A DNA stretch of 64,000 bases, taken from assembly GCF_964204645.1 (NCBI RefSeq), contig NC_134025.1:25834299-25898298 (forward strand), in the 5' to 3' direction. Below, in pieces: positions 28,701 through 60,536 of the stretch (the stretch's first letter is position 1; each line of letters begins with the position of its first letter). Source of the DNA: Tubulanus polymorphus (taxonomy: Eukaryota; Animalia; Nemertea). The notes beneath the pieces were generated by a model that saw only the letters and a list, made by a program, of their open reading frames with translations, had not been told where the DNA came from and ran no database searches. The position numbers and the translations under genes were made by a program.

Positions 28701-31700
28701 TTATATGTTCAGCGTATAACTGAAAAGAATCGATTGACTGTCCCTTGATTACCGATTGAGAATCTTCCATATTTCAACTTGGTACTGATTCAACTCGACA
28801 TAAACGGCATGTATAAGTTGGCAGCTCTTTCCCTTCCTAATCCTTTGAAGTCTTAATTATAAACTAGTACCATATATCTGATACCTCTTGCCGTGGCTGT
28901 TGACTGCATGTAATTGCTGGAACCCTCGGATATTTCTTAAATCTTCCGTTCAGCTTCAGTTTAGTAGTATCAATGTTGTCGTCGCACGCTATTCGGTGTT
29001 TCATTTTGTTTTTCCGTTGTAGGAGCTATTGTTAGTCGTAGATGAATATGATTGTTTAAATAAAACTCACTTACTTGTTAACGCTGTGCAACATGAACTA
29101 GATGAGACGCATTCTGAATTACGTGACATCCAAAAAGACATGCAAGGCTGCTGCGATAAAGAAAGCTTTGTAAGGATAAGCATGTAGCATGTATCCTGCA
29201 CTGAAACAGCTTTCATAACGTGTTAACGCAATAGCACTAGCGTACATTCACATATAGCCTACGTTAGCATGTCATATAGAATTAAAACACATTTGTGATA
29301 TGATTAGATTAATTTTAAGTTGGAATATTAAATTTCATCGCACGAATTATGAATTTGGAATTCATTTAATATTATCGATAAAGAACTTAATTTAAAAGAT
29401 TAAAAAATGCATAAGGTTGTGAACGGTAGTTGTTAAAGCGTAGAACATTTTTCTGTGCATGTGTAATTAATTCTCTGCTCTGACTAGTAGTTAACATTTC
29501 TAATCCTCCAGGAAATGTCCGAAAAGTTCCAGCAATTATCCGCTCAGTTAACATCTCTGACCCAGTCCCATGACAAGGTGACAGATCTCCAGCATGATCT
29601 AGCTCAGGCCAAGTCTGAATTGGTTCGACTGCAATTAGAACTGGAAACAAAGACAATGCAAAGCGATGTAAGGCTCCTATCCTATTTATTTATGTATATT
29701 TTCTAGAAGTATACCCTCTCTACTGCTGACCCATTGATTTGTCTTGTTCGTGCTTAGTACTTTTTCACTTCTCGGTCCTCTGGATTGTGGGTTGAGGTTT
29801 GGATTTATGATAATATTTTAATGTCGATTCCCTGCTACTACCCCGATACTAAAAAGCACTTTGTGTACTAACTTTGTATACTATCATTGTTTGCCCATAT
29901 CCCCAACAAACCATAGTTATCGTCATATTGGAACTTGATACGAAAAAGAGCCACTATTTATTTATGATGTAGGAATTGAACCAGAAGTATTTATATCTAC
30001 ATGAAGAGCTCGCCTCGACAAAGTCGGAACGCGCTTCATTCGAGGTTGTCGAAGAGCTGGAACAAATGAAACGAAGCCTCGTCAAGGCTCAAGTTGAAGC
30101 GAAGAGAAAAAGCCATGAATTAAGAGTGAGACATAGGTGTCATACGCATGTTTTATGTTCCATCCACATGGCTTCAGTTTAAGTTTCTGTTCTCAACAGC
30201 TGCTTATGATCAAACAGAGCTTTTTCTGTACATAACGATTTTGATTTTGATTTTAGGTCTCTTATTTAGTTATTTTTACGATTACGAAATGGTTGAAAAT
30301 TTGGCTGTTCACATCGATATTGAATTGTTGTTGTAGTTAGATGCAAGATAATTTTGTTGACATATTTTCAGCAATAATTTTTCTAATATAGTTTCAGTTT
30401 TTGTGTCTAAAATTCTCGCTATTTTATATTTTAGGTCAATATTCGATGTTTGATAGTTTCAATATAAGCTTGTCTTAGTTCTTTTTTCACAGATACTTGT
30501 TTTTACTGTTGGCCTATTGGATAACAACTGTAGTCTAGCCTAGATATTCATTTGTTGGCATTCTTCTTACAGGACATAACGGACCAATTCCAGAAACTTT
30601 CATCTGAACTCGATTCGTTGAGAACTAATGAGTTGAAAAGTTCGGAGTTGCTGAATAAAACCAAAGCCGAACTCGATGACGTTGAAAAACAGCTCGCTGT
30701 TAAGAATGAAGAGAATACTGTAAGAGTATTGAATGCTAACTGTACTTGCCGTAAAGCATGATATAATATTACCTTACTTCATAACAATTTTCTATTCCAA
30801 TGATTTTGATAAGCATTAGGATTAGGTCTATTTATGTATGAAAAGTATTAAGTCCTTACTACATTTGGTTCAGAATGAATTTCGGCTTATATTCCTTGTA
30901 GGAATTGTTAGGCAAATTCCAAGGTTTAACAGTTGACATTGGAACAATGAAAGAGCGAGAAAGTGAAGCTTTTAATGAGTTGAATCGTATAAATACTCAA
31001 TTAGAAATGTCTCAGCAACAAATCTCAGCATCGTCCCTGGAAAAATCTGTAAGCAAGGAAAACTGCTACTATGAAGAATTAATCATACGCCTAAAGTGTA
31101 TATACAAGCGGTTATATAAGTACCGCATGAATCTGCACATAGCTTTGAAAGAAAATGGTTTTATTTTAGGAGTTAGATGCAAAATATGAAAAGCTTTTAT
31201 CTGAATACAATTCCGTTAAATCAACGAGTGCCGTTGATAATGACAGCGAGCAAAAGATCGCTCAGTTTGAAGAGAAAATTTCCCAATTAGAACAAGTTAT
31301 AGCATCGAAAAGTGAAGAAAATGAAGTAAGATTAATTTGGCCGAATTATGATTCGTAGATTTTTCTACAAACGCTGTTCAATATTGTTGTGTATTTGGCA
31401 GTGTCTAATTATGAATGTTTCTGATAACTAGGAATTGAAAGAGAAACATAAAAAATTGATGGATGAGTTGAATGTAATAAATTCAAAGGAAATCGATGTG
31501 AATGAGATTGAATTGAAGTATCAACAAGCACAAACTGAGTTGGCTTGTGTGAAAGAGACCATTCAAGCGAAATCTCTTGAAAATGAAGTAAGCTTCAATA
31601 TTCAGACAATGATATGAACGTGATTGGATCGAATTTGATTGAAAATGAAAATATTATGTTGAACTGACTGGTTTGATTCCCAGAGCAAATTGAAACTGAC

Positions 31701-34700
31701 TGTGAACAATGTGTTATTTTTAGGAATTAAGCACAAAATATCAGAATTTGTCCACAGAATTATATACAGTCAAGTCTGACAGCGAAAATAGGGAAGCTGA
31801 ACTAAAGCTTCAACTGCAAGAGTCCCGAGATAAACTCGATAATCAGAGTGAAATAATCTTATCTAAAACCTCTGAAAATGAAGTAAGCCGCTTCTTGAAA
31901 AGAGCTTGCTGAATTGCGGACTTGCTTATAAAGCCAGTGTTTGCTTGAAATAATTTCTCACAGTTTGATTATTAGGATGTATTCGTCAATTATAAATTGA
32001 AGACAAGTTATGATTTCGGATAAGCTTGCATGATATCCTGCTGTGAAAAATACCCTATAGCTTTTACTAACAGAATGTATATATTTGTGAAAAGTGAATT
32101 TTTGTGCAGACAGAACAATTCTCTGTAGAATAATTTGCATCTTTCTGTCCGCTTATTTAAGTACCGCCATCAATTCAATTTTAGGAGTTTCATGGCCGTT
32201 TTAACAAATTGAGCGCGGAACTCGAACTATTGCTCAAAGCTCAGACAGTGTCTAGTACGAGCGATAACGACAGGGCCGTGAATCGGTTACGCGATGAATT
32301 ATCAGTAACCACTGCTGAAGTGAAAGATCTTCGTTCGCAGTTAATCGCGGTTAAATCTCAACTCGAAGCTGCTGTAAGACGCTCTATATATAGACACACA
32401 TAAATATGTCATCTATCATTAATCACGGGGTTGAACTCAATGATTATTTGGATGATGGAATTCTTCTTTAAGGCGATAGTAATTCAATTGAAAAATTGAT
32501 GGGGTCTTCGCAAACTGTGCTTTATTGATTTACTGTATGCATGATGATTGCTCTGTCTCTTCGTTTCAAATTGTCATTAATATAATTCAGTTATTTCAGC
32601 AATCAATTTATTCCGTAATGAAACCCGCTTTATCTGGATCGTACCGATGTAAAAATTCTGTTACCGTAGATCTAAAGATTCTTGAAAGAACAAGTAGACT
32701 GTGAATGTCCTGATTAGATCAATACAGTTGACCGGGCTTAAACCATCATTGCGTATATCGTAGAAACATTTATATTGTATTCCGTATTTCATTAGGTTGA
32801 AATAGATATCAGTTTAGCTATTACACATCTGATACTGTACTTATATCGTGTGGACATTGCCAGTCCTGGTCATATGATATAAGCGTAGTCTATTGTATTC
32901 GACATGATTCAGATGAAGTGTGTTTGATTATTTTTGATACCGGTAACCCTCTATCCATAAAGCCCAAGAGCCCACTTAATCCGTATCATTTTTTACCAGT
33001 TAATGAATATTGTTCTGGATTAAACATTTTCAATAATTTCTTCGATTAAGTGGGTTTGATGTTCAATAACCTTGTTAGTTTGTATTTTCATATTCCAATT
33101 GATTGCATGTGATTTTCAGATAATCATGATTTTACTAATCGCATTGTATTGCTTTTGCATGCTCTGATCAAGATGAATTCAATTTGTACTTAGTGATTTA
33201 TACTAATGTTAATTTTTCTGAAGCCACTGAATTCAGGGTCAGTAATTTGGAAAAAGGAATTTGATTCTGATATCAGGCTCATAGAAAAATTCTGAGCATG
33301 ATCGTTCCTAACTTAATATATTCTCTCTGGAATGATGGTAGAGAAGTTAAGTGTTCATGGAAAGTATTTCTGTCTAGAACAAAACTCACTCGGCTCTTCT
33401 ACCTATTTCGAAATTCATGATCTTGATTCGAGAATTATCTGTAATAGCGCTGCGTGGTCCTGTGAATGTCATCAGCTGCCTGTATTTTATAGATAATTAT
33501 TGGGTTAAAAGACTATGTATGTCTATATGTTATGAAGTTAACTTGAAATTTTACAGGAGCTGAAAGATAAAAATACGAATTTGGCTCGACAACTGAACAG
33601 CGCTAATGAAAACGTACAACAACAGGTCGAAGATGCGCTGAGAGGAGAAAGAGTAAGTATGATCCAGTCAAATTTCAATCTAATTTCTATATTTCTTTAT
33701 GTGGGTTTTACTATCACATTCAAACGCTGTCCATCAGTAACATGTCCAGTCTAGAGCATCACTTTGCTCGGTAAATATGTTGATTCCTTGGTCTTCTCAC
33801 ACTCTCTCTTACTGTAGATGCAATCATTATTTTTTTTTCTTGTTTAATGAGAATTAACGCACTCTCACTTCTTTCTCTTTACTAGAATATAACAGTAAGT
33901 ATATGTATATATATATATATATATATAAACCGACCTTGGTGAACTGAACAAAGCGTATTTTTGCAAATATTCATATGGATTTAGTTACTTAATAGAAGCC
34001 ACTTAAGTTACTGTTCTTTTAATTGTTTCGATTCTTGTGTAAATCAATATTGTGGCGAGTTGTATATTGAATAGGAATTCATTTGTCGATTAGAAATTAA
34101 TTACTCGGCATCGATAAATTTGCCGCTCCTTAAAGAAATGCTGCCGATTCGATAACTAAAGTGTACTTGTATGAATATTTCAACTTCAATCTCTCTTCGC
34201 AGCTTAAACGAGGTCAAATAGTAGTGAAGGTACAGGCTCATTATAAACCTGTGTTAGGCTTCATTAATTCATATCTGGCTTATATAACGCGGCTGCTTAC
34301 TACGTATTCATACATCATATTTTCATTCGTAGAATTTCCGCTTATCGTTCGTCGACTGTCCAGTTTTTAAGTGAATAACCTATACATTGTGCGTTGCTAT
34401 TTTAACGAAGAATGTAAATTTTGAATATGATGACCCGGGTTAATTCAGTGAGATTAGCAAAAAGTTGATAACTTTGAAAAGTCTTAGACATGCATGAGTG
34501 CTGACTGCTTCAGTATAATACACCTTCATACATATGTTATATCATCAAATATATTATCAATCATGCGGCTAAATATTTTTGTCAAGTCATCGTCCTGCCG
34601 AACACACCGTGGTATAAACATCTGCTTCAGAACGCAGTTTTACTATAATCTCGTTTTATACTTGCTTTCTATGGTGTCAGCTGTTTCTATTGAATTCATG

Positions 34701-37700: not shown

Positions 37701-40700
37701 GCTGTTCAGTCAAATGGGATTTTGTTTGTTGTTTTATTTCTAGTTTAACTTTCGTTCTGCTGATGATGTTTCATCTCAGTAGTAGAGAAAGTCTGCTTGC
37801 GTTGGCTTTTCCATTTGTGCTACTTTTTGCGGAATTAAAACGTTGCCTTTGAGGCATCATTAACTGACTCCCAATTATTAACATACTGTAAATTCCCCAG
37901 TGAAATCGTTGCTATTTTCTTGTGTGTTAACAAAAGATAAACATGATTATTATACCTCTGTCCAAAAATGTATAGAAGAAATAACATAAAAACTTAAAAT
38001 TTGTCTTGCATGAGTCTTTAGAGACCTAGTCTGAATTATATTCTAGCACCTCCATTGTTTTAAAGCATTGTAGCCGCACAAGCATGATACAGAATACATA
38101 AACGAAGAATGATAAAAAGGATAGATGTCATATAAGATTCCGTGAAAAGATAGAAAAAATGATTATAGTAAATCTGTAGGCCTATAGAATAATTTAGGAA
38201 CAGATATCACTATTGATATGTTCTGGTTATGAGAAAACACTCTTTGAATATGCATATAAAATTTTATATCTGAGAAGTTTATTGTGTAAATAGACAGGAA
38301 ATAGGTGTTGTTTATGATAGATGTTTGTGGCACTTTCATTTCATCTTCTGAAATATCAGATCATAGATAAATATATACCAGTTTATATATATTTTTTATA
38401 TTATGTGTATATCGAGAAAAATACATATGCTATTGTGAAGGATAATTGCTAATCTGGATATTGGGTGTTTAATCAGTGTGTCTTCTAAATCTAATATATC
38501 GACCATCTGTTTTATCATGACCTTGTATCTGTTCATCTAAAGAAATTCATTGTGAAATAAATCCTCTTGTAACTTATGTTTTATTACATTCTTGTTTCTT
38601 ACAGAAATTAGGAGAGTTAACAGCTGAGTTGGAAAAGGAGAAAAAGGAGAAAGCCGATCTCGCTAGTCAAACTTCTAAATTAAACTCCATTGTAACTACT
38701 GGGCAAGATGCCCTAAAAGCTGAACAGGAGAATGTCAAGCAATTACAAGCTCAACTAGATGAAAAATTGAAGGTAAAAATAGAATCATCTCGTGCTATAA
38801 AAGGAATGCGCATTTCTAATATATCTTCATACAATGTATGATCATGTTCTAAACGCATGATAGCATTTTATCAGTGCATCGTGCCACATTATCAAATTAT
38901 TGAATATCTATTGAACTTCCATTGATGAAACATTGCGTCGTACGGTGTAACAAAAATGTACATTCAGTGTTTAACCCTAGTAGTTACTGCTTCGCCATCA
39001 TTTCGCACTTATTGATTATGTATATAGACTACTCTAATTTTGCCTTGTTGGAAATGAAAATAAACATTAACTTCCGTTTGAATGATGTCGCTTCGTCAAA
39101 TACGCTTCAAATTAACTTTTATCTGAATATTTTATTTAGATAGCTTACGATTAATACATTTCTGTGTGTTTAGGTGTCTATTAACGCTTATTGATAATGT
39201 AGATATGTATGTAGATGTTAAAATATCGTTTGTAATCTTTACCAGTCGGAAAAAAAGCCTGAAAAGAAACGAGATTCGCTTCCAAAACTCAGTCTATTTC
39301 GGTCAAAAGCTAAAGACAAAGATAAAGATGAAAAGGTTTAGTATTATCTAATGTTATTTAAAAATAAACCCAGATTTACATTTAAGACATTAGTTACCTT
39401 GGACGTGGGGTTTATGTTGTAATCGAGGTATAATTCTGGTAATCGGTTTTGATTTTAACATAGTTTGTTTGGCTTTGTTTGGTGTTTCCTTTGATAATAT
39501 GATAAACTCCGGATACGATGTTTGATATATAGCGTGGTTTGAATCTATAACTGGATTTCTAGAGCATGCTGATTTATCTAATATATCTAGTGCTAATCAT
39601 CTTTGAAACCAATCAATGAATCAATCATTCATTCATTTATTCATATTCATATGTCTAGTGAGAAACTTCCTCCTTGAATACCTTAATCATCAAATCATCA
39701 AATCATTTCAACCTCTTGGCTACCTTCACTGACCCATGATTTGCTCAGCCCTGTATCTACTGGTCGGTACAATATACAATAGCAGGGAATAGTCTGCCTC
39801 CCTCTAATTTTGGTTCTCAGCTGTGTAGGCAGTATCGGTAACATGTAGTTACTACCTGTAGGGTGCAGGGTTGGCATTAGGCTATGGTAGTCAGGGGAAT
39901 TATTTGGATCTATTTGTCTATTAGTAATGAACTGTAGAGAAAATGAATGAGATCTGATTGGTCGAAATTTCTCTCATTATCATCACCAAAACGGTGAATG
40001 ACGGCTGAGTTGATCAACACATTATTGCTTCTATCATACGATGCAATATTCTCTCATGATTTTCTCTCTAGGACATACAAAAGTTTGCGAATCTGTCTGA
40101 TTGGGAAATTGTCGACCCTTCATCAACTTCAGGTGCAGGGGATCAGGTAGTAGAATATTGGAAACGTAACCAAATTTGACAGTTATTACCTATTATACTA
40201 ACGTTGTTTTTTCGTGATTGTTCCTAACTTCATTTTGATTAACATCACCAATGAAACATGGTTTTATACTCGAGATCTAGAACATAGGACCTTGTTCATT
40301 GAGTTGAACTGGTTCTACCAGTACTTCTCAAAATCTTTTCTGCATATTTCTGTAAACAATAGTTGTTCATGAGAAAATATAAGCATGCATGCCTATTCAT
40401 TTCAACTGCTTGGAATCATTAGTTTCATGGACATTATTCATTGTTATTCTTTGCTTCCTTTCCTTCAACCTGAAATATTTAGTTAAAAAAGAAAGTTTTT
40501 TTTTTGTTAGCCAACAGAGTTGTAGTTACGTTTTATTTCATATCAAGCTTGATTTTAGCATTAGAAACTGTTAACAAAGAAAAACATTATTGTTGTTTTG
40601 TCATCTCGATGATTGTAGATTATTATTAGATAAGCAACCTACTGTATGTCACACATACTCTCCATTCGATTTTTCGATCTGTTATTTCGTTGATTATCAG

Positions 40701-48600: not shown

Positions 48601-51113
48601 TGGAGTACTTTATCATATACGATTATCTTACCTTCAATATGCTGCATAGTTCTGATAAAGTCTCGAGGTGATTTATATGAATAATTAGAGGACGAAACAC
48701 ATCATATAACAGTGTACACAATCGTTGTAACATATGACTGCAAACAGATAATAGGAAAGATTATTCATGGTTTGATGCATAATGGACCGAAACGCTGGTT
48801 TTATGTAGTTGTCAATCTGCTGTCTGTACCCAATCCTTCAGACGATCCCCATTTGAATGACAAAGTCTAGATGAACATATTTTTAACAAATGATGAATGT
48901 CTGTCTAAAATTCATAGTTAAGACATGACACCCTTATTCATTTTCAAAGAAAAATGTCTGGGGTACTACCACAGGGGGCGATGCCTGGACGAACATGTTT
49001 TGGTAAAATGGTGAATGTCTGTCGAACGCCTGAGGGAGGTGTGTACAGACAGCAGGTTGATAGCTGCATTAATATCGATGTTAACTCACTCTAGCTGCAT
49101 GGTATGTTCCGTGAAAAACTGATTATAAAGTTGATATTCGTCTTCACAAACGTGCACCAAAAATGCGCAGCCACTTCGCATCTGACAAGATAAAAGAATA
49201 GAAAATAACCTGTGTATCTTTGCTGAACAATTCCACAGGGTTTTTGGAAATTCTAAGAAGACTCTACACACCAGTGCGCAGTGATCTCTATTGTGTTTAG
49301 TAGCTAATTCAGCGACGGCTTGAGAAATGCTCGGACCGAGTAATGTTTCACGCTGAGAAAAATAACACTGGTGACAATCTGATAATAGCTGTTCATACCT
49401 GAAATAAGCGCCCAATGAAATAAGTAACGAGGGAGGGGCAGCAGATATTTTATGAGGGATGTCTGCCTTTCAGGTGGCAGTAAAAATGAAAGGAGTGATT
49501 GTGGAGAACTATAGAACTACTTACTCTGAGCTGACACCTCTACGTTGTTCCATTTGTTCCATCAGGGCTTTTACCCGAGGAGCGTTTGTCCGAAATTTAC
49601 CGTAAAATAATGTGAATGCGTTATCATCCGTACCAGTTATATCCTAGAAATCCGAGATTAAATCAGTTGTCAGGACTGTTAAATTCAAGATTGTACCTAC
49701 ATCCTCAGATTGAGCCATCGAGGATTGAATTTACCTTCCGTGGCATCGCGTTTAGAGTGGCATTTTGAAGGATGTTGACGACGTGAGTCTTAATGAGCGT
49801 TAATGCTTTCGACAGTGACTGCTTGAAACGTGCCAAATATACCGGAGATTCTTTATAACGAGGCTGAAAGTAAGAATCACACAAAAGATCGGTTCCAAAT
49901 ATATCTCATTTCTGGTGTTGTAGTCGTTTACATTGATGGTTACAATGACTTACATTTTTGTTTAGGTAAGCTATGCATTCGTCAATCCTGGATAGAGTCG
50001 GTACAAATGAATCACTTGTCACAGTCAGCGTAGGTGCACCCAGTCTCTGTGAAAAATACAGCATTTTTTGGTAATTTATTTCTTATTAAATGCCGTGAAA
50101 AATGATGGAAAGTACCGAGAAGATATCTTACACTGGTAATCTTGTCCAATTCATTAAAATATGACAACTTGTTTTGGATGGTCTCAGCTTGGTTGACTAG
50201 TTTCGTCTGAAACAGAGAATTAAAGGTTTAGACTCGGTACGCAAAATGCTATGAAAAGTATTTCTAACATTTTACCTGTTCATCCAATAAGTGTTCACAA
50301 GCTTCGTGGAGCGCATTCGTTTTCGTTGAAACGTGTACGTATTGATTCATCAGTTCTTGCAGATGATCTAATGCAGTGGTAACTTCATTCAGTATCTGAT
50401 CGCACTGCTCTCCGTAATCAGCTAACTGGTCCAAATAAAAACTACAAGAAAAAGGAAAGAGACAAATTAAAATACTTGTTGTTCATAGAGGACAAGCTGT
50501 TGGTCAAATATATATGATCCTACCCGTATTGCAAATCATCTTCAGTTTTCACCTTGTCCTCAATTTTCGAATACCAGAGGAAAAACTGTTGGGCATTCTC
50601 TATCGTTTGTTCTTCGATTTCTAAAGCAGCGAATCCCTTTGCTATGATATCGTCCTCCGACCCTGTCGTACCACTGGTGGTACTGGAATGTAGATTCGGC
50701 ACACCAGGAAATTCATCAAGAGGCAACTGAAATTACAATATGCTGAGTTCAAGTACGATATGGATGATTGATTTCCATAGAAAATTAGTTAGAAAGCATA
50801 AAGCACTAATAAAGATTCACTTTCCAGGACCCAGACCTATGCCACAGTACAGAACGTACATTACAGATTGTGATGACATTTGACAGCCAGCAAACCCGGA
50901 AGTAAAAATATTAATATGTTAACAGTTTTCGACTATTAAATGCCCTCATTATGTTACCTCAATTGGTAATTGTTTATTTCCAACGTGACCAGTTAGCTCC
51001 AAGATTCCGTGTCTCTGTCGTTCAGTCAACGGAGCTTTAGGGGACGATTTGGCTTCCCAGGCGGAGAGTTTTTCTCTCAAAACCTTGTTCGAAATTGTAA
51101 ACGTGTCAGCCAT
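45602..51113 (-). CDS. COG3: Conserved oligomeric Golgi complex subunit 3 (Sec34), multi-exon
   Basis: MADTFTIS...[110 protein letters not shown] at 45604-45602. Confidence 0.96.
46664..46819. mobile_element. Degenerate Tc1/pogo-type MITE in a COG3 intron
   Basis: The right end reads TA-CAGTAAACCTCACCTAGCTCGGACA on the minus strand; a degenerate inverted copy ...tctcaacttactcggaca lies at the left end. Confidence 0.45.
48805..49067. mobile_element. ~260 bp MITE-like inverted-repeat element in a COG3 intron
   Basis: Perfect 13-bp core ctgctgtctgtac (48817-48829) / gtacagacagcag (49043-49055), extending imperfectly to ~40 bp. Internal direct repeat ctagatgaacat / ctggacgaacat. Confidence 0.6.
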
Positions 51114-52149
51114 TTTTGTTTGGGCCCGGTTCCTACTCGGTTGCCGGTGCATACTTCGATTCGCTTGCGGCTAATTGTCTTTCATCGCAAATATCGTCCT
51201 TTAGAAAAAAACCTATTAAATTTGTATCACTTGCCGAAATAGGATGCCAACTTAAGAAAATTTTATCCTTCGATGTATTGCTTTGTAAATAGCAAATTAC
51301 GGGATTCGAAACTGAACATCACAAACTTTGCGCCAATCATCGCTCAGAACGGACTGACGCACCATTGGCGCGAAAATGCGAATGCAAAGTTCTCACCGAC
51401 TGGATTTATGTTTCATAGTGTATACTTAAAAATCTTTTTTAAATCAAAATTATAAAAAAGCGAATGCACAAGTTGAATCACTTACCATCATGCAGATTCC
51501 CGATTAGCGTGCTCTTGACCATTCTCTTTGTTGACGTCAGTTTTACAGTATCATTTCTTTTTACAGAGTATTTTCCCTATTACAACTCTTTGTTGACATC
51601 CATCAATTTTAAAGTATTATATCTTTTTACGAAGTGAAGTCTGTCTAAACATTGACTGGTTTCGTGAATCTAGATAGTACAGTTTTCCATGTGCGTGGGA
51701 AGTATCATCTTGGGCCGTACCAAACGCGTCGACTAATTATAGGCTGAGGAATTTGGAATTTAGAAAAAAAGGGAATGGGTTGGGTTTCAAAAAAGCGTAT
51801 ATCCCGTATATCGGAGGGACAAATAAAATTACGTACAGTCATAATTTTGATAATAAACGTAAATATGGATGGAATTTCCGGGAAAACGATATTTGGAGGT
51901 TGAGACCCATGAAGTTTCGAAGGTTCGGGGTATTTGGAGGTCGGTGAGTCTATCTGGTAGACCAGGTAGCGTGCGGGAACGAGTTACCGAACTGAGGATC
52001 GAATGCATCTCGGATTATCTGGAGACACTAGTAACTTGTAAAGGATCTTGTGGTCAGGGAGGTCGGGCTATTAGTAGATCGGCTATGTGGAGGATTGTGG
52101 TATCAGGGTATTGGAGGAGGGAGGATGGTGGTGATATTTGGTGGCAGAT

Positions 52150-52765
52150 TTGGGTACCAGTACTAGTAGTCCTACTGGTATTGCCATTAGGCAGTCATCG
52201 CAGTCTAAGACGGCATATATTCCTGACACTGCAAGGCTGTCCCGCCTTCCCAACTCTCAATGTGCACAAAATACGACGCGCATTAGTAGGAGGGAAGGAG
52301 TTTGGGCTTGGACTGAGGTTTATTACCGCAGTCCTATTGTTTTCCACTGTGCGGTGAGGATAACAGTACCCAGGGCCTCTCTTTAAGCCCCGGGTACGGC
52401 CTACCCATTGAATGGGCAAGTTCAAGGGTTTTTCAAGAAATTTATGCGTGAGCCTCAGCCCTCGCATCTTTGAAAAATCCTATATGAAAGCTTATCCCCC
52501 CACCAGAAATAAATGGGGGGAGAGGGGCAGTTCCCAGTGTTTCTCAAAGCTTGCAATGCTTTGATGACAAACCTGGGAACCGCCTCGTTCGCTTAAGTTC
52601 CCAGGGTTTTTATAATGATAAATGCATGAGCCACGGCCCGCATCTGAAAAACCCTGGGAACTTCTTGCCTCATTCAATGTGTAGGCTAAAATTGCAGTGT
52701 CAGAATTTTGCCGTCGATCTTGAGACAATCGAGCCGATTTGGTACTACCGGTAGGGTACCAGTTG
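52150..52765 (-). ncRNA. Putative structured RNA domain (nested multi-branch fold), family unrecognised; strand tentative
   Basis: Nested stems 52209-52234/52692-52715 and 52399-52420/52664-52686 enclose seven hairpins, including a perfect 17-bp stem 52595-52611/52647-52663. Confidence 0.6.
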
Positions 52766-53859
52766 ATAGATTCCCGTATAGAAGTATTAGTAAAGATGGG
52801 ATTGGGAGGGTATATAGAAAGAAAGTTCATTTCAAGAAATCGTTTGAAGATGGGAAGTTTGGGATTGATAAAGTGCTTGAGGTTAATGCGGGGATGGGGA
52901 GGGGCTGACTACAAACAGGAATCAACTGTCCGATATAGGTTTCTAAATGGAAACACACGCCTCCGTGCATTAGGAATGGCCAGATAGCTACCAGCAGTGG
53001 GTTTTATATGGATGATGATGTACGAATCCCGGATTTGGGATAAATAGATTGGGGTAATCTTGGACGGAAGAGGATTGTTGGGATCTAGAACGAAAACCAT
53101 GGATATGAAACAATAGATTGCAAGGCAAGGCTGACATACAACCAGACACTACGTAGCCTATGTTGATAAATGAACATCAGTGAGCCAAAGTTTCATTTCA
53201 GTTTGATTGGAAAGTTAGATAGGAGAATTTCTGACACAAGTTGATTATTTATTGTGATAGGTGGAAGATTGGGAAGTTTCAATGTGTATTATTTTGAATA
53301 CGGGAATTTTGTTGCAAGTTTAATTATGGCCGTCAAGCAGCCATTGGTAAAGTTTCAAAATGGCTCATGGATGATGACAAAAATGACTACCAGTTAGTTT
53401 TTACATGAACCTGATTAAGATTAGTCAAAAAGAAAAACAATCATTTAAAGATTGCGCAAGAAGCATTTGATAAAGCAGGAGCGGTGTGGCGGGTGTAAGA
53501 AAAAAAACCGGAAATTTTGGAAAGAGATGGGGCGTAATCTGATCAGGTATCAATGTACAAATAACGTGGCTGAAAAACATCCATTGGTTGCTTTTGAAAT
53601 TGCCACTATTCGTGTATGATGACAAGAAGGCTACCTGTAAGCTGTGATTTTAATTATTTGCAAATTATTTCGGAGAATGATTTGAAAGTGACCACGCGTT
53701 TGGCAGGCGATCTGTACAGATATGTAAATACATCAGGATAACTGCACCAAATTTACATAATTATTTGCAATATTTTACATTATTCGTGAAATCCACTGCA
53801 CCATAAATAATGCATGAGATCACCCGAAAATCTAAGTATTTGCGTTCATGCCCATGCTT

Positions 53860-54985
53860 GTGATCCATACTTAACCCTTGAATGAGTGTTCCCACTCTGT
53901 CTCGGAGAGCAACACAAAAACTGGCCATTAGATATAAGTATTGACTTTACCATCGATGTATGGATCACCTGATACTTTTCTACAAGTCGATCGTTTAGAT
54001 TTTCGAGGACACATACGTAAGTTTGTACGAAATTTCATTATTATCGGTTTAGACAGACCAGGGAGGTCTCTCGCACCTCCCAACATACATTGCGTACTGT
54101 ACATCATTTGTGATGATGGATGCCGAAACAAGTTAACAAACATTGGTCACGCTCCTGATAGAGTGTGATAGGGTACCCTAGTACTTTGATTACTTTCATG
54201 AACAACTTATTCCGAATACATGATCTTAAGCTTTGCGAACTTTGCAAAATTAGGAAAACATTTTGTTGCGTATCATTATTGAACTCGTGGATACGTGAGT
54301 TCGAGAAAATTTGAGACAGTTTCCTCCTGATACATGATCGTTGCGTCACATATAGCACTTTAGTTAGTTTTTCAAGGCGACGACTTTTTCCACTTCGGAA
54401 CATAGGAAAATGGTCTCCAAATGGTGGAGCATCATAATCCCTGAGTCATGTATGATACGCGAGACTATCGCGGGTAGATATGTAATAAACCGGCCCGTGG
54501 TTTGAAAAATTACCCCTTTTACATTACGTACTCACATATCATATAATACTTCTTTTCGTAGGATCTTTACATAATTATAGTTAGATCTCAATGTGACATC
54601 AAATATGTTTGTTCATTTGCATGAAATATCGTGTGGCCATCTCAGTATTTCTGTCGTCTGAGATTTTACACAAATGTATAAACGTTACATAATTGTTTTC
54701 ATTTTGAACACCTCGTTCATAAGACATTAAAATAACGATACCCGGCTGATGGTACCAAGCTTTGCTCTAAGAAAAGGCAATCATCTAATGAATGAATGAA
54801 GATACTATTCTGTAATCATAGATGTTTCGTGCCTTATTGTAATTTTGAGACATTTGAGTCGGTGATCCAAACTTATGGGAAACGATTTTAGGACGGTTTC
54901 TCTCATTTAGACATAAGTAATACAACCTAAACTGGCCCTAGTTTTTGATGTAATATTTATCATGCACATGGAGTTTGGATCACGG
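53860..54985. ncRNA. Putative structured RNA region with two homologous GTGATCC stems and many short hairpins
   Basis: Perfect stems 53860-53870/53958-53968 and 54862-54873/54972-54983; hairpins at 54061-54081, 54147-54168 and 54281-54302. Confidence 0.4.
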
Positions 54986-55229
54986 AGTGGTTGTTGATAT
55001 AACACAAAAATATTAACAAAGATACTAACATAGGTAAAACTATAGCTTATAGGTAGAGATGCAGTGTAAAAAGCTATTTATGATATAAACACAAGTAAAA
55101 CTAGGTGATGCAGTGTAAAAGGGTGCATCAGAGAAATAGTTTAATTTTTGGAAATATTTGAATTTTAGAGATTTTTTTGTTTGAATTTTTACAGTTTTAA
55201 AATGTTTTTGGTATTTAAAAAAAATTACT

Positions 55230-56853
55230 TAAGTCCGCACTGTACACATGGGGTATGATATATAATGCAGAGCTGCCATTACTCTGCATATCATACGAAA
55301 CAATTAACTTTCAAATTCACAGTTAAAATAGTAGTACCAGTATCAAGTAGTTTCAATAGTTACAACAGATTAATAAAGATAACACAATGAGAAGAAGTTC
55401 GGCGTAATGAGATATGATATGGGGGTATACTGGTACCGGCAATGAATGACGATTAAAATCAGAAGATAAGTTGAATTTTAAAGAAGAAAATATATGTACA
55501 GTGCGTCTTAGTAGAAATACCACTTGTGGCTTGGCAAATTTTTGTACCTTACCCATCAATAACTGGTATCAAAATATCAAGAATCTAAGAAATAAGCTGT
55601 AAATCTGAAACGATCAGTAAAAAGTGTAATGAAATGTTCATTTCGGTTGGATGGGTAAGGACAGGTTGACGATCTTGCTGGCGATTTGGCGATGGAGTGA
55701 CGGTTATTGTTTGATTTTGAATTTTGAATTTTTCGCAGAATTGAAGCGAATCGAAATATAATTTTTCGGTGAATGGCTTCTGGGGCGAAAGATGAAGCCA
55801 AAATATTTGATGTTAGAAATAGGTTCAAGACGAACAGGGAAGGAATTGGTAGAATTTGTGAGAATTCTTGATTTTGCGCACAGCAGGAAATTCCACCCAC
55901 TTTCTAGAACCAGTCAGTTCAATTGCTCGTTCACTGGATGTTGATAGAAGGTTGAATCGTGACTGGGCAGTAAAGCGATCCATAGACCAAAATCTGATTT
56001 GGTTTGCAGATTTGGCTACGTCGGGAATTTCCATTGTGCTAAGGCCAAACACACATGACGATTTTTGCAAGCCGAGTCATGTGCCCCACTCAATCGCCAC
56101 CGAGCCTCCAGTCATACGATGTAGTGAGTAGATCAGGCGATTTTTCGAGCCCACTCACCGGAATGCTGCACTCCCGCGCAGATTACATAGTGCAATTCCC
56201 ACGGTGACCCCGCTCGACAATGTATCAGTTTCGGTGCCAATGATTGGCTACCACGAATCCATATTTGGCAGATCTAATTGATGCAGTGGACATACCAGAC
56301 GATATTGATCGAGCGATTGATTGGTCGTCCAAGTCCAAGATGTTCGAAATCAAACAGGCGATTTTTTAGTCACCCGATCAACATAGGTACAGGTGTGCCC
56401 AATTCATTGATGAGATTCGCCCAATTAAGACTCTCAAGATGATAGCCGTTCCTTGGGCCGAAATTTGCACATGAACGACCTGATAAACGGGAAATTGTAT
56501 TATGTAGTCAGTGCAGTAGTACAACCACCCGTGAATAAGTTTGAAAAGCCGTCTGATCTGCTCACTCCATCGTGCAAAGTAAGGACCGGTGCTGATTGAG
56601 TCGGACACATGAATCGTCAGGATAAGTCGTCAAGTGAACCCGGGAAGAATTCTGAAATATCCAAAAACATTACATCCTTCGCGTACCAGAAGCCATAGCA
56701 CATTGCACTGAACTTCGGCCGAAAAGATGTGAGATATTAAAGTTGAATCGGAAAGTATCAGTTCAGTGCTTTTTATAGACATATTATAGCTAGCTATAAT
56801 ATGACTATGTTAGACCTACATAAAGTAGGCCTGTGAACCGTCAATCCATCGCC
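55230..56853 (-). ncRNA. Long branched fold-back directly downstream of the orphan ORF (structured 3' UTR / hairpin RNA)
   Basis: Basal stem 55688-55705/56836-56853 (17/18); 55773-55783/56686-56696 (11 bp perfect); ~280-bp imperfect rod ~56060-56330/56357-56635; side branches; further stems 55236-55246/55495-55505 and 55547-55557/55650-55660. Confidence 0.65.
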
Positions 56854-56866
56854 GCGCGGAGCAGAT

Positions 56867-57565
56867 TCATGATAAAATATCTACGCTGTTGGAAGAGAAA
56901 CAACATCCGAACATCTTCTTGAAGAATTTCTTGATTTTCTTGAATCTGCTGGTTCTCCTCCTCGGCTCCTCAATTACAAATGCATTCACTGGAGTGATTT
57001 TGTATTCGGGTCCGTAGTCGTAGTCGTAGAATCGCTCAAATTCGTCATCATTTTCGGCGATCATTTCGGAGGCCGTGATCTCGAAAGCTAATTGTCTTCG
57101 CTCGAATTGTCGTCTTCTCATCATCGTGACGGTTGGGGTCAGAGGTCTGCAGATTCGGCGAACAACTGGCGCATACATGGCAATTTCGTCTGGCTGGCCG
57201 AGAGATTCCGTCGAAGAGGAGATATCAATGACGCTGCAAATATCGCTTATGTTGCTTCCGAAACTCTTCAAACTAGCAGCTTCTACCACGTAGGTTTTGT
57301 CAGAATGGAAGCTGTGCTCGTCATCTGCATTGTAGTCTTCATCGCCGACATCAGCGAAATCAGCGACATCAGCATCACCAGCATCGGAAGGAGTAACCGG
57401 GCTAGGCTCTGCCTCAATGCTTTTCCATACAACTTGGTCGGGCGAGAATACTCTACTTGTCGTCCATGTTTTCCCCTTGTCGTCGCGGATAACTCTAACC
57501 ACACCATCATCGCCAATATCATAGCCGATTTCGGCTTCTTTTACCAAAACGCGAGTAACAGGCAT
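56867..57565 (-). CDS. Orphan 232-aa protein (intronless CDS), acidic/low-complexity middle, basic amphipathic C-terminal helix with Cys-Cys
   Basis: 699-nt open frame, GC-richer than its flanks, with a TATA/Inr and a splice acceptor upstream. C-terminus RRRTSRFKKIKKFFKKMFGCCFSS. No family recognised. Confidence 0.65.
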   Translation of the reverse strand: MPVTRVLVKEAEIGYDIGDDGVVRVIRDDKGKTWTTSRVFSPDQVVWKSIEAEPSPVTPSDAGDADVADFADVGDEDYNADDEHSFHSDKTYVVEAASLKSFGSNISDICSVIDISSSTESLGQPDEIAMYAPVVRRICRPLTPTVTMMRRRQFERRQLAFEITASEMIAENDDEFERFYDYDYGPEYKITPVNAFVIEEPRRRTSRFKKIKKFFKKMFGCCFSSNSVDILS

Positions 57566-57697
57566 CTAGAAATATTCATGCGTATCATTTTTGAAGACGG
57601 TGAAGCGGAAAAAATATGCCCAGTTTTTCAATAGTTTGGTTGATAAAGACAGTATTCGAATTTCTTTCGAAATCGTCCACTCAATAGAAATAGACCT

Positions 57698-57730
57698 ACT
57701 GCATCCCCAACGCGATGTCAAATATTTATA
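57698..57730 (-). promoter_or_regulatory. TATA box plus initiator for the orphan gene
   Basis: TATAAATA on the minus strand (57730-57723), 30 nt upstream of an Inr-like gcAgt (A at 57700). Confidence 0.55.
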
Positions 57731-58744
57731 AACTGACACCCTAATATGGTAGGCTAGGCATTAAATGAAACAATGACGGGGCGAATTAATTTTCAACTGC
57801 CAAGAGAAAAAATATTTCGTAAGTTATCTTTAAAAAAAAAATGTGGGAAAACAATTCCTTCCGGCGACGGCATCCGTTCCTCTGTCATTAGTTTGATGCT
57901 CATCTCAAAAATCTTCCGTCTCAATGTTCAATAATCAATATTTAAGATGAAGATCACTGAAGATCTCATACCCAGTGAAAAATATAATATATTTTATGCT
58001 GACACCCCAATCAGGATGCCTAAATAATTGCAGCACCGACGTAAGGGGTACATATTCAATTCTGAAAACCGGATAGCTTAAACTCGAGACCCTTGAAATA
58101 ACTCATAATTAAATAGAAATAAGAGTTGGCAGGTTTATTATTCATTTCTAATTGTTTTTACTTAAAAATAATTAAGTTTACAAGTACATGTATCATCTAG
58201 TAGATATTATATGTCGTTTATGTTAATATTGATGAAAAAAAGCTAAGTAATAAATATCCCATTCAAAACAGTTCAATTCCACCGTATGTTATCTATCTCA
58301 TCAACTCAGGAATTGGATTCGTATCAAAAGACAAAATATGTATTTAGGAATTTTCGCCTAGACCTGCATCTGATGAGGGCCCCTAATCCATAAACACATT
58401 CTGAAAACACTTGAAAAAAGTTTCTCCAGCTTATAGTTACATAAATCAAAAGACAATTCGGAATGTATGATGTTTGTATCTTTGATGTTGAAAGTGGACT
58501 TGGCGTCCCCCGAATCACTTGCACGTATTAAAGCTTTGTTAAAAGTTATACACAATTTGGTTAGAAGACTGAGACAGGCATGATACTGCCACGAAAACAC
58601 CACTAAAATCGCTCACATAATCCACCACAAACACGTAACTAAGTTACAAAAAGCTTGCGAGATGATTTCTCGATGAAATTTTGAATCAATTTAAACACGA
58701 TTTACAACTTAAAAACTTAATGATCTTCATTTCCACATACTTAC

Positions 58745-58950
58745 ATTTGCTAATGCGTCTTGTTTTATTCGTATTAAGTACTATTTTCTTTAATTTTCTG
58801 CTATAAGTCACCTAACAACGGCACTTTAGTCGAGCTGCAACTTTGACTAACTTCACTGAAGCGAGTCTTTATAGTTACTATGGATGCTGAAACTACGCGC
58901 ATGCCCGCCCGTCGTCACGCTATGACGTCACTAGGGGCTCCAGCCGCGGA
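58745..58950 (-). promoter_or_regulatory. CpG-rich distal promoter and candidate non-coding first exon for the orphan gene
   Basis: CRE TGACGTCA at 58923-58930, NRF1-like gcgcatgccc at ~58897, GC box. An ATG-free stretch ends at the donor |gtaagt (58744); an acceptor tttctag| directly precedes ATG 57565. Confidence 0.45.
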
Positions 58951-59448
58951 GGCGAAATTTACCGATTGCATGTATGGCGTGTTGATACCCTGGCTAACGT
59001 TTTGATAATATAGGATAATTCTGGACTTGTCTGCATTTTGAAAGTATTCAAAATCACTGCGTCTAAACAAATAAAATGCCTTAAACATATATTTCGCTAA
59101 CAAATTTAAGACACGACTGAAAACCAGAAAATCATATTGCTTGGAATATGATTTCTTCACAATTCTTATTTATGATACATATTTAAGCATGAATATCCAT
59201 CGACCCGAATCGATGAATTAAAGTGGTACAGATACTCGGTTTTAGTTCACTTCGACTGGCATTTTTCTATCAAATTTTTCATTTATTTTGATTCCCGTTG
59301 ATATCACGCGCGTTATCAACGGGGATCGCTCAAAAGTTATACCTGTGAGCATCACATTTTCAACGTTTTTTGGGGGGAGGGCTCCAGAACACTGTTCAGT
59401 TCCAAATAAAAATCTAACCCTCCCGCCACTTTCCTCCTCACACTACGG

Positions 59449-59627
59449 TGCGGGCCTGATTTGAATGGAGTGTTGTATCATTCAAAACCCAATTCTGAGT
59501 TGAAACTGACTCTAAATGGATTCCGTGGTTTGACTCTTATTAAGAGTTATTTCCAATAGTTTCACTGTGCAGTCGAAATTGAATTCAGAACTGTGGAATA
59601 AGGCGCGATCGACAAATCAGGCCCGCA
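59449..59627. mobile_element. ~180 bp MITE-like element
   Basis: Perfect 15-bp terminal inverted repeat tgcgggcctgatttg (59449-59463) / caaatcaggcccgca (59613-59627). No clear TSD. Confidence 0.55.
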
Positions 59628-60536
59628 TCCCTGTCCTTTGTATTTTCATGATGGTGGACCTCTTACGACGTGTACGGTTAGTGATATTTTCGATACGAGT
59701 TTTTTTTTCACCAAAAATAGTCAGACACAATTTTATTAGTTACGAAACGTTTTACGCAGTTGGTCTGCCGACTTTAGAGCGTCTTCAATTGTCTTGCACT
59801 TCCCCTAGCGGGAAACTTTCTTCCTTTGTTGCAGAATAACGGCTTTAATTCTTCTTGTACGGTAACTACGTGTAAGCAAAAGTCCTCGATTTAGACAAAA
59901 CCGTCTCCTTATCCATCGACAATACATGAATCAACAACGGAAAATAAATTTCTTCTTTTCTGTTTATTTCATTCACTATGTACTTTCTGATAATCTTTTA
60001 CAAAACAAATTCACTCAATACAATATTTCGATTCATATTCACTTCCTAGACACGTTTTTCAAGATTTAATGAATGAATTCAAAAAAGTATTCCTAAATTC
60101 ATAGCACAATATACCCTGACTTTAAATACCCCAAGATTCAAGTCTGACACACACTGGTAAAATTCTTATTCAGCGCTTAAGTTTATTTGGACACTATTGT
60201 GCACTGTATGATATTCTTACTCTAGAACTGCATTTATTTTAGTCACAGCTGGCATCAATCATAATCCATAATAAACCAGGTGACATCAGGTAAAGGTGAC
60301 ATCATCTTAGATTCAGATCATAACATAGTAAAGACATGCTGTCATCACACCGTAAAAGCTTAACTAAATGTTCACAGAAAAAGTATGTAAACCTTGATCA
60401 CATTTATCTATTGATGAATAAAGTTAAAAGTACAGGCAGTATTACGCAATCATAACTGTTTCATTGTTCATCGTGTTAATTTTACTTTCAGATTTATCTG
60501 CTTGAGATCAAAAGTATGTAAACTAATCTCACGCGA

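Follow-up and report, generated by a model that had tools for sequence, protein, structure and literature searches.

Introduction

In Drosophila, Staufen is recruited by the 3' UTRs of bicoid and oskar, both of which dimerise (PMC7357161, in part). Among the embryonic RNAs of Ilyanassa, 3-4% are asymmetrically localised; a 3' UTR element of IoLR5 is both necessary and sufficient for localisation, and 3' UTR elements direct the centrosomal segregation of RNAs of the Ilyanassa/Crepidula type (10.64898/2026.10.05.756875, in part). In roX2, mutually exclusive stems are essential (PMC5710142, in part).

The locus described here, from Tubulanus polymorphus, is a tract of ~5 kb of single-copy DNA that is dense in fold-back stems and lies beside an orphan gene. 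It was analysed within a stretch of 64,000 nucleotides, referred to below as the window. Like the bicoid and oskar 3' UTRs, the tract is multi-domain and helical, follows a coding sequence and has the potential for intermolecular pairing (PMC7357161, in part); unlike them, it has visibly duplicated arms and an orphan ORF. The likeness is claimed in form, not in sequence, and localisation is here a prediction. The tract is also several times longer than the bicoid 3' UTR. IoLR5 of Ilyanassa and the partitioned mRNAs of Crepidula probably come from the same broad clade, but the accessible text on IoLR RNAs describes no kilobase-scale nested structure (10.64898/2026.10.05.756875, in part), a comparison made by description rather than with IoLR sequence. 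With roX1 and roX2 the tract shares repeated stems with mutually exclusive pairings (PMC5710142, in part); it differs in having no Rfam match and in adjoining an intact 232-aa ORF. No described locus of this kind was met in a literature search of mainly open-access texts, with primary Ilyanassa work outside its scope. Drosophila hpRNA loci have a long imperfect duplex with a short loop, a shape also found in the tract, but the clade of the present host is reportedly without the full endo-siRNA pathway and no target homology occurs in the window.

Locus and features

The earlier note had placed the tract in a tightly packed genome. Intergenic spacing is indeed compact, but DNAJC13 and, judged from exon spacing, RRBP1 have multi-kb introns. 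The best named matches of a DNAJC13 exon are from molluscs (76-81%) and an annelid (76%). Elsewhere, the window holds a strong palindrome at about 1590-1690 (z -11.7 for 1470-1790) and a multi-copy element with 33-nt inverted ends (48800-49072). Features of the tract and its flanks are summarized in Table 1.

Table 1. Features of the tract and the adjoining orphan gene (window positions)
Feature	Positions	Strand	Description
Candidate plus-strand promoter	51451..51539	+	TATAAAAA at 51451; Inr-like TCACTT, A at 51480; CRE at 51532
Domain D	52153..52760		Two stacked multi-way junctions, three related arms
Linker, unstructured	52770..53350		G-rich on plus, C-rich on minus
Domain C	53860..54983		Two direct copies of a self-closing module of 109-122 nt; interior weakly structured
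Domain B	55236..55660		Perfect 10-11 bp stems 55236/55505, 55334/55436 and 55547/55660; hairpin 55253-55296
Domain A	55688..56853		Nested closing stems; side domain 55878-56039; 577-nt imperfect hairpin 56056-56632
Stop-codon stem	56860..56950		Perfect 10-bp stem including the UGA stop codon (56860-69 with 56941-50); stem search
Orphan ORF, 232 aa	56867..57565	-	ORF call and shuffle test
Candidate intron, 1.18 kb	57566..58744	-	Ends TTTCTAG immediately 5' of the ATG; splicing predicted
Candidate distal promoter and non-coding first exon	58745..58930	-	Predicted from sequence motifs

Orphan gene

The single credible ORF claimed for this interval stands: an ATG ORF as long occurred in none of 300 block shuffles of 51700-58950. 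A plus-strand ORF of 162 aa (51869-52357) is likewise unusually long (its length was reached in 1 of 300 shuffles) but has no codon-position bias and no family above cut-off, and was provisionally not counted as a gene. The orphan protein is acidic and mostly disordered by prediction, with several S/T-P sites and, at the C-terminus, a basic helix and after it a GCC motif, possibly a membrane anchor. A single-sequence AlphaFold model is uninformative (pLDDT 37), with a helix at residues 206-219. HMMER gave no match among 1.84 billion representatives, and there was no Pfam or NCBIfam family. Word-index search of 5.8 billion proteins found no relative of the whole protein (near lengths) or of residues 1-60 (longer lengths), viral contigs held none, and no ESM Atlas score exceeded 0.79. 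Two metagenome matches were put down to chance, covering residues 2-44 only (41%) inside a bacterial-type secreted protein, as judged from one of the two (L001).

The TATA/Inr signals ascribed to this ORF are weak matches, and neither minus-strand promoter passes a loose TATA+Inr scan, which gives 20 plus and 22 minus matches across the window. The candidate distal promoter contains a CRE (58923-58930), a half-CRE, a GC box and TATAAAG at 58873, with a putative start near 58845 and a donor GTAAGT at 58744. Its Inr spacing is non-canonical, and it fails the loose scan. An alternative proximal TATAAATA at 57730 lies inside the candidate intron, which, read as minus, has G>C and T>A skew in agreement with the sense-strand pattern of the window.

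Known families and copy number

A Rfam 15 search of the 64 kb gave no match at gathering score, in line with the absence of any known ncRNA signature reported earlier; 51200-60500 gave three chance-level matches (E 1.9-4.4). No microRNA family reaches threshold. A tRNA-like element was dismissed (no tRNA found), as was telomerase RNA: neither strand of 51000-59400 has a template of at least 8 nt complementary to TTAGGG repeats, and a TTAGGG-complementary 8-mer at 59414 lies beyond the tract and occurs at chance frequency (3 in the window). The hammerhead core has no minus-strand match and one loose plus-strand match, which is background, and no strict four-run G-quadruplex occurs in the tract. 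Compared by eye on the basis of consensus features, SECIS, the Smaug element, 7SK and, for modules C1 and C2, LTR/TRIM elements did not fit.

The reported lack of a transposase was also borne out, as 77 stop-free frames held no transposase or RT relic and no Pfam family at cut-off. Depth in sequencing run X1 is 35-42 across the tract versus 270 at a known control repeat; the match to high-copy DNA transposon families, an objection raised in the earlier note itself, was not found by X1 depth at a likeness of at least 85%.

Structure of the tract

Perfect stems of 10-17 bp were found at the positions reported previously. At a stacking energy of -17 kcal/mol or lower, 25 perfect stems lie in 51700-56960, versus 7.5±2.8 (maximum 15) in 200 shuffles and 1-9 in ten other tiles of the window; at -19 kcal/mol or lower, there are 14 versus 2.4±1.5 in shuffles. 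The structure is far beyond chance. Whole-domain folding was compared with 8-20 dinucleotide shuffles per domain, and z (plus/minus) was -11.4/-12.7 for D, -10.6/-11.3 for A, -1.8/-3.3 for B and -2.4/-3.8 for C, the values for B and C being inflated because the domain boundaries were picked after the stems were seen. The D-C linker gave +1.1/-0.6. In an unbiased 600-nt scan, D (to -4.8) and A (to -5.9) alone stand out, and B and C reach at most -1.8; in the background, 6 of 137 scan positions fall below -2, none of them 3' of DNAJC13 or in 42-45 kb. At least four structured domains had been proposed. D and A are strong, their z lying far from dinucleotide shuffles, but B and C are weak overall with real closing stems. 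"Tiled" was an overstatement: no domain-level structure occurs in 52.77-53.85 kb, and folding is mostly weak inside B and C. The description "non-crossing" fits the strongest stems, those at -19 kcal/mol or lower, where crossing is seen in 4 of 13 overlapping pairs (shuffles 61%), but not those at -17 kcal/mol or lower (25 of 42; shuffles 63%), partly because the duplicated modules have two pairing options. By z, all four domains fold slightly better on minus, an effect partly built in by composition.

Because the structure is beyond chance and the tract is single-copy and neither a known ncRNA nor a transposon, two of the three objections that the earlier note had raised against its own reading (folding like that of shuffled sequence, and membership of a high-copy transposon family) fall away.

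The arms of domain D are 52425-52481, 52526-52584 and 52595-52663, with an apical motif common to arms 1 and 3. D has 163 confident Watson-Crick pairs in 15 helices, versus at most 95 and at most 9 in 57 background tiles, and some helices abut without a linker. Such a compact multi-branched form would be hard to derive from a single decayed palindrome. A covariance model of the arms recovered the three source arms plus a weak fourth match within D (E 0.3); phages, viral contigs and the rest of the window held no other copy of the domain. G·U in D is low (4-5%), and no GNRA or UNCG was found among confident loops. No 6-8-mer passed multiple-testing correction; the YCCAAWY motif, chosen after looking, occurs 9 times versus 1.4 expected in two linkers.

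The duplicated modules noticed earlier are real: the interiors of C1 (53860-53968) and C2 (54862-54983) agree at 55 of 80 positions (2 of 1000 shuffles), and the apical parts of D arms 1 and 3 at 24 of 31 (0 of 1000). Pairing is possible within each C copy or between both. The reported compensatory change was confirmed as one T-A/A-T in the C closing stems. No target-site duplication was seen by eye in the four bases flanking C1 and C2, which have 11-12 bp inverted ends. The array of fold-back modules was likely built through local inverted and tandem duplication.

The long hairpin of domain A has arms of about 280 nt with 184 Watson-Crick appositions and a short loop. Its folding, equalled or surpassed in 72 and 64 of 100 simulations, agrees with neutral decay; the hairpin behaves like a decayed DNA inverted duplication and cannot be told apart from a neutrally decaying palindrome.

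Strand and transcript signals

The minus-strand orientation implied by the earlier note was not established, the wobbles being strand-symmetric and the linker G skew pointing to plus. G·U appositions number 28 plus versus 23 minus in skeleton helices and 24 versus 28 in the long hairpin; such symmetry should not be seen in RNA selected on one strand. In plus-strand genes, the sense strand has G>C in 17 of 18 2-kb bins (mean +0.063). Read as minus, the tract has a G/C skew of -0.136 (z -6.2) and the linkers -0.28 to -0.43, opposite to this sense pattern, which counts against a minus-strand 3' UTR. On plus, the unpaired positions in A and B are rich in A and have G>C.

The minus-strand AATAAA at 53253-53248 lies in the linker. 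None precedes it after the stop codon (3.0 expected; none in 4.8% of 500 shuffles, for an interval chosen afterwards), and across the full 5.17 kb there is no depletion of the signal (2 versus 3.6-4.3). An mRNA could also end early, at a TATAAA variant (56777) or at ATTAAA (55145). PCBP-type C-rich patches number 18 on minus and 6 on plus, with 1-6 in 18 control tiles; 18 was reached by 3 of 500 mononucleotide and 32 of 500 dinucleotide shuffles. Of the 10 UC3-4 motifs on minus, 8 lie in the linker. Sequencing runs X2 and X3 behave as DNA, as a gap-free piece spans an AHSA1 intron.

Interpretation

The ORF, the stems and their excess, the duplications and the start of structure at the stop codon are observed. 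We tentatively favor the reading that the tract is an unusually long 3' UTR of a minus-strand orphan mRNA, perhaps serving as a protein-binding platform for localisation and translational control. Stable multi-helix structure is present 3' of the orphan stop codon, as in localisation-type 3' UTRs. The stop-codon stem ends 7 nt short of domain A, and the structured run starts within the last codons of the ORF; the closing stem of A begins 13 nt past the stop codon, and the gaps along the run of A, B and C are 28, 42 and ~250 nt. Also in favor, the closing stems of the C modules remain perfect (11-12 bp) and include a compensatory change, while identity between the module interiors is limited. 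The AATAAA-free run from the stop codon to 53253, the compact multi-branched form of D, the slightly better z on minus, the PCBP-type patches and the precedents of Ilyanassa, bicoid and oskar point the same way. Counted against this reading are the G skew, the symmetric G·U appositions, the agreement of the long hairpin with neutral decay, the lack of AATAAA depletion over the full tract together with the two possible early ends, an 18-nt deletion at 52449 in X1 that takes away the apex of D arm 1, a second variant that breaks an outer D pair, and a UC3-4/hnRNP K motif count not above composition-matched shuffles.

Under the 3' UTR reading, Pol II would start near 58845 (or 57700), and a short leader would be spliced onto the ATG. 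With a 3' end set by the first AATAAA (53253), the transcript would include A, B and C and have a 3.6-kb UTR; alternatively, it would continue across D. Double-stranded-RNA-binding proteins such as Staufen might recognise the shape of its helices, which are rich in Watson-Crick pairs and poor in tetraloops; the long A duplex might also be edited by ADAR, be it as a side effect or as a signal. D arms and C modules could swap partners, intra- or intermolecularly, and so pack the mRNA into particles, while C-rich single-stranded patches may bind PCBP/hnRNP K-type proteins that would keep it silent in transit. The protein, translated locally, would be disordered and would dock on a membrane by a basic tail that ends in cysteines. 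All this would most likely take place in the oocyte or early spiral-cleaving embryo. The label of a "new system" used previously was not borne out; a 3' UTR platform or a lncRNA stays plausible.

Somewhat less probable is a separate plus-strand lncRNA, likely starting at 51480 in the COG3 promoter region. It would contain D, perhaps also C, B and A, and meet the orphan gene head-on. It could be a structured nuclear scaffold (roX-/Xist-like) or could regulate in antisense. A split arrangement, in which D is on plus while A-C belong to the mRNA, is covered by this reading. The plus-strand G skew has the window's sense sign in 51480-53855 (+0.195, z 6.1) and 54990-56056 (+0.244, z 4.7), and 52-54 kb is the most skewed 2-kb bin of the window, but there is no T>A skew of the sense type (AT skew +0.02 to +0.07), and C is unskewed. 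In A and B, the loops are rich in A when read on plus; the wobbles have no plus preference. TATAAAAA has an Inr at +29 and adjoins the COG3 CCAAT boxes, although such matches arise about once per 3 kb per strand and are therefore weak; this candidate promoter falls just short of the interval given in the earlier note. D and C allow mutually exclusive pairings of the roX2 kind (PMC5710142, in part). Plus-strand AATAAA at 51822, 51852, 52508, 54484 and 55372 argues against such a transcript, which also leaves the coincidence of structure edge and stop codon unexplained.

An equally doubtful reading is a non-functional or DNA-level spacer whose nested palindromes, now decaying, go back to an old fold-back or non-autonomous element and to repeated duplication by template switching. 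It fits the strand-symmetric mismatches, the low G·U, the lack of GNRA and UNCG, the neutral decay of the A hairpin, the clean loss of one apex in X1 and the other strong palindromes of the window. Hairpin correction in DNA can moreover mimic a compensatory change. The inverted ends of C1 and C2 and the strand-symmetric palindromes recall MITE and Foldback elements; unlike these, the tract is single-copy by depth, has no high-copy family at a likeness of at least 85%, no target-site duplication visible by eye at C1/C2 and no transposase or RT relic. Also against decay alone, numerous unrelated helices abut at the multi-way junctions of D, and the strong compositional skew suggests transcription or selection.

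Rather improbable is a plus-strand scaffold lncRNA of roughly 5.4 kb that shares the COG3 promoter region and runs head-on with the orphan gene. Both strands would then be transcribed, and selection would therefore keep strictly Watson-Crick, strand-symmetric stems; the duplicated, partner-swapping arms would assemble multimeric RNP particles. If true, a trochozoan would have a roX/Xist-like RNA with a high degree of structure, a kind not met in the literature search.

It is very improbable that the A hairpin serves, as an hpRNA or a precursor of microRNA type, as the source of diced small RNAs that silence a target in trans: its inverted repeat forms a roughly 280-bp imperfect duplex, but a partial or complete loss of endo-siRNA proteins is reported for Trochozoa (PMC11114477, in part), which weakens the hpRNA analogy drawn earlier, and the arms match no gene in the window and no Pfam or (at threshold) microRNA family, with B, C and D left unexplained.

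Significance

Should the tract be palindromic DNA in decay, it cautions that z-scores of -11 need not reflect RNA function. As a plus-strand lncRNA, it would be a rare example with strong structure from an understudied phylum. Spiralian embryos sort many mRNAs between daughter cells through cis-elements that are barely known, with a single mapped snail element cited (10.64898/2026.10.05.756875, in part). The discrete, strongly folding and duplicated modules of T. polymorphus are a ready candidate set for studies of such elements.

Structure of the tract

The structure of the tract between COG3 and AHSA1 is real. In 51700-56960 there are 25 perfect stems of -17 kcal/mol or stronger, where 200 shuffles gave 7.5±2.8 and ten control tiles 1-9. 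Folding scores against dinucleotide shuffles (z, plus/minus strand) are -11.4/-12.7 for domain D and -10.6/-11.3 for domain A, and only -1.8 to -3.8 for domains B and C, the ends of which were picked by hand. Within the tract, D and A alone stand out in an unbiased 600-nt scan; no signal follows DNAJC13, whose 3' UTR had been proposed as a control. In domain D, 163 Watson-Crick pairs are predicted confidently whichever strand is folded, with 15 helices of at least 5 bp; the maximum among 57 background tiles, which cover 1-35 kb or about half of the window, is 95 pairs and 9 helices.

The earlier note's observations are largely confirmed. Its duplicated modules exceed shuffles in likeness: the three arms of D are related, with an apical motif common to arms 1 and 3 (24/31; 0 of 1000 shuffles), and C is bracketed by two direct module copies with interiors identical at 55 of 80 positions (2 of 1000 shuffles). 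The one compensatory change is found in the closing stems of the C modules, which remain perfect. The description of the stems as non-crossing holds for the strongest only, since two alternative pairings are open to the duplicated modules.

Known families, copy number and sequence differences

In agreement with the reported lack of known ncRNA signatures, an Rfam search of the tract returned no family; it contains no tRNA and no telomerase RNA template. Nor was a transposase found: 77 stop-free frames held no relic of a protein family, five weak matches all lying below the cut-off. The positive control for copy number was a MITE-like, multi-copy element in a COG3 intron (48800-49072, 33-nt inverted ends), with a depth of up to 270, against about 38, in the genomic sequencing run X1. 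Depth across the tract is 35-42; the tract is thus not a high-copy family at a likeness of at least 85%.

Three runs, all from one study, behave as DNA, and X1 is perhaps the source of the window itself, or closely related to it. Its nine listed differences in 51.7-56.9 kb, too few for a selection test, were placed on the predicted helices by eye. An 18-nt deletion takes away the apex of D arm 1, a G-C pair replaces a mismatch or wobble at 56115, a wobble remains on the minus strand only at 56443, and an outer pair is broken at 52166. The remaining listed differences fall at unpaired positions.

Gene content and locus

The coordinates of the features are listed in the table.

Features of the tract and its neighbors
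Feature	Position	Strand	Remark
COG3	start near 51114	minus	tract neighbor
ORF, 162 aa	51869-52357	plus	overlaps start of domain D
Domain D	52153-52760		
Domain C	53860-54983		
Domain B	55236-55660		
Domain A	55688-56853		long hairpin 56056-56632
Orphan ORF, 232 aa	57565-56867	minus	tract ORF
Candidate acceptor	immediately 5' of ORF's ATG	minus	by eye
Candidate non-coding exon, 100 nt	GTAAGT donor at 58744	minus	by eye
Candidate distal promoter	CRE 58923, GC box, TATAAAG 58873	minus	by eye
AHSA1	last exon 60740-60537	minus	Pfam PF08327, E 3e-13

Genes of the window are rich in introns and intergenic distances are short. In one search, the best named matches of a DNAJC13 exon were molluscs (76-81%) and an annelid (76%), and the host is accordingly taken as a probable lophotrochozoan. 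The identity of COG3 is presumed from its earlier naming and the N-terminus of the protein. At 51485, some 370 nt ahead of the COG3 start, stands a strong minus-strand donor, possibly joining an upstream exon, or else a read-through transcript of the tract, to COG3. Only two full CRE palindromes (TGACGTCA) occur in the 64-kb window, at 51532 and 58923, flanking the tract at either end; roughly 0.7 per window is expected from composition. The first lies within one copy of a tandem duplication of about 45 nt (51524-51630, 80% identity).

The 232-aa ORF is, as claimed, the one credible ORF; block-shuffling the tract 300 times never gave an ORF of this length. Purines occupy 70% of first codon positions, and codon preference could not tell the frames apart. 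No Pfam or NCBIfam family, no relative in word-index protein searches, no match among 1.84 billion representatives (HMMER) and none in viral contigs was found; two metagenome matches were dismissed as chance. The single-sequence protein model is of low confidence, with one C-terminal helix. The basic tail with terminal GCC suggests membrane docking. Instead of the proximal TATA noted earlier, a gene model with a distal promoter was judged better by eye; its motif matches are weak evidence. The putative intron, read as minus, has skews matching the window's sense strands. Chance rarely yields an ORF as long as the 162-aa one on the plus strand (1 of 300 shuffles), which has no family match and no codon signature.

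Transcribed strand

The earlier note implied a minus-strand transcript. This is the main point corrected here: evidence exists for minus, for plus and for neither. For minus, a 10-bp stem contains the ORF's stop codon, domain A closes 13 nt beyond it, and B and C come after A with little space between. A stretch of 3.6 kb lacks AATAAA, as do 4.8% of shuffles, a post hoc comparison; depletion over the whole tract is not significant. Motifs of PCBP/hnRNP K type were counted with assumed flanking letters, and only the alphaCP-type count was borderline above shuffles. The minus strand's C-rich linkers may be PCBP/hnRNP K sites under selection. PMC6369361 gives UC3-4 as the SELEX optimum of hnRNP K KH3, and PMC3367169 gives three C-rich single-stranded patches for alphaCP.

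For plus, the window's sense strands carry more G than C (17 of 18 bins; mean +0.063). The tract shows this bias on its plus strand, its two skewed parts reaching +0.195 and +0.244. That strand also has A-rich unpaired bases in domains A and B, and a TATA with well-spaced Inr is present at 51451-51480. A plus-strand scaffold or antisense lncRNA, with a precedent in roX2 (PMC5710142), is possible, if doubtful. For neither, G·U and A·C appositions number 28 and 23 at the skeleton helices and 24 and 28 in the long A hairpin, and among the confident pairs of D, G·U accounts for 4-5% whichever strand is read.

Other structures and motifs in the window

One hairpin, almost perfect over about 55 bp and centered near 1636 with flanking stems (1470-1790, z -11.7), apparently lies within a 5' intron of a gene with a presumably NDUFB3-like product. 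Rfam has no match for it; a MITE, a microRNA-like hairpin and an editing substrate are all possible identities. By eye, the intron that follows (about 2240-2390) also seems self-complementary. At 59300-59720 (z -2.6/-2.4), a perfect 15-bp stem (59449-63 with 59613-27) closes a 180-nt domain, beginning 27 nt past the 8-nt CTAACCCT; telomerase RNA was considered there, the 8-mer being no more frequent than chance and predicted to be paired. Folding on the plus strand is in modest excess in two intronic segments, 17201-17800 (z -2.9) and 39601-40200 (z -2.5). Three plus-strand copies of GATGCAGTG are present (55059, 55108, 56281), two of them forming a 14-nt direct repeat, and CACTGYA is found five times on minus, against 0.5-0.7 in background; neither is significant once corrected. 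In the RRBP1-like gene (30500-32400), similar coiled-coil exons at about 260-295 nt spacing, with the same donor context at their ends, suggest exon duplication.

Origin and interpretation

The arms of the long A hairpin match at 184 positions, and the clumping of matches is ordinary. Of 100 simulations of neutral decay to the same identity, 72 on plus and 64 on minus folded equally well or better. The duplex thus behaves like a decayed DNA inverted duplication without trace of strand-specific selection; despite this fit it may be used as a generic dsRNA platform. Other strong palindromes in the window indicate that this genome generates them, and a non-functional palindrome array is as possible as the lncRNA. 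Domain D is unlike the A hairpin: its two junctions gather numerous short helices that are unrelated to one another, and some of these adjoin directly, with no linker between them. We infer that D is an evolved structure.

The earlier interpretation, an orphan ORF with about 5 kb of structured RNA, is partly supported. We tentatively favor a long 3' UTR that would serve as a dsRNA-protein platform for localization and translational silencing; the lncRNA and the palindrome array are close rivals. An hpRNA is very improbable, given the trochozoan loss, in part or whole, of endo-siRNA machinery reported in PMC11114477, and readings beyond these four have a slight chance. The proposed UTR platform would act like bicoid and oskar (PMC7357161) and like localized RNAs of snails (10.64898/2026.10.05.756875), its membership of that class being putative. 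As a sequence the locus is new, and its scale is unusual; in kind, it is most likely a variant of known regulatory RNA.
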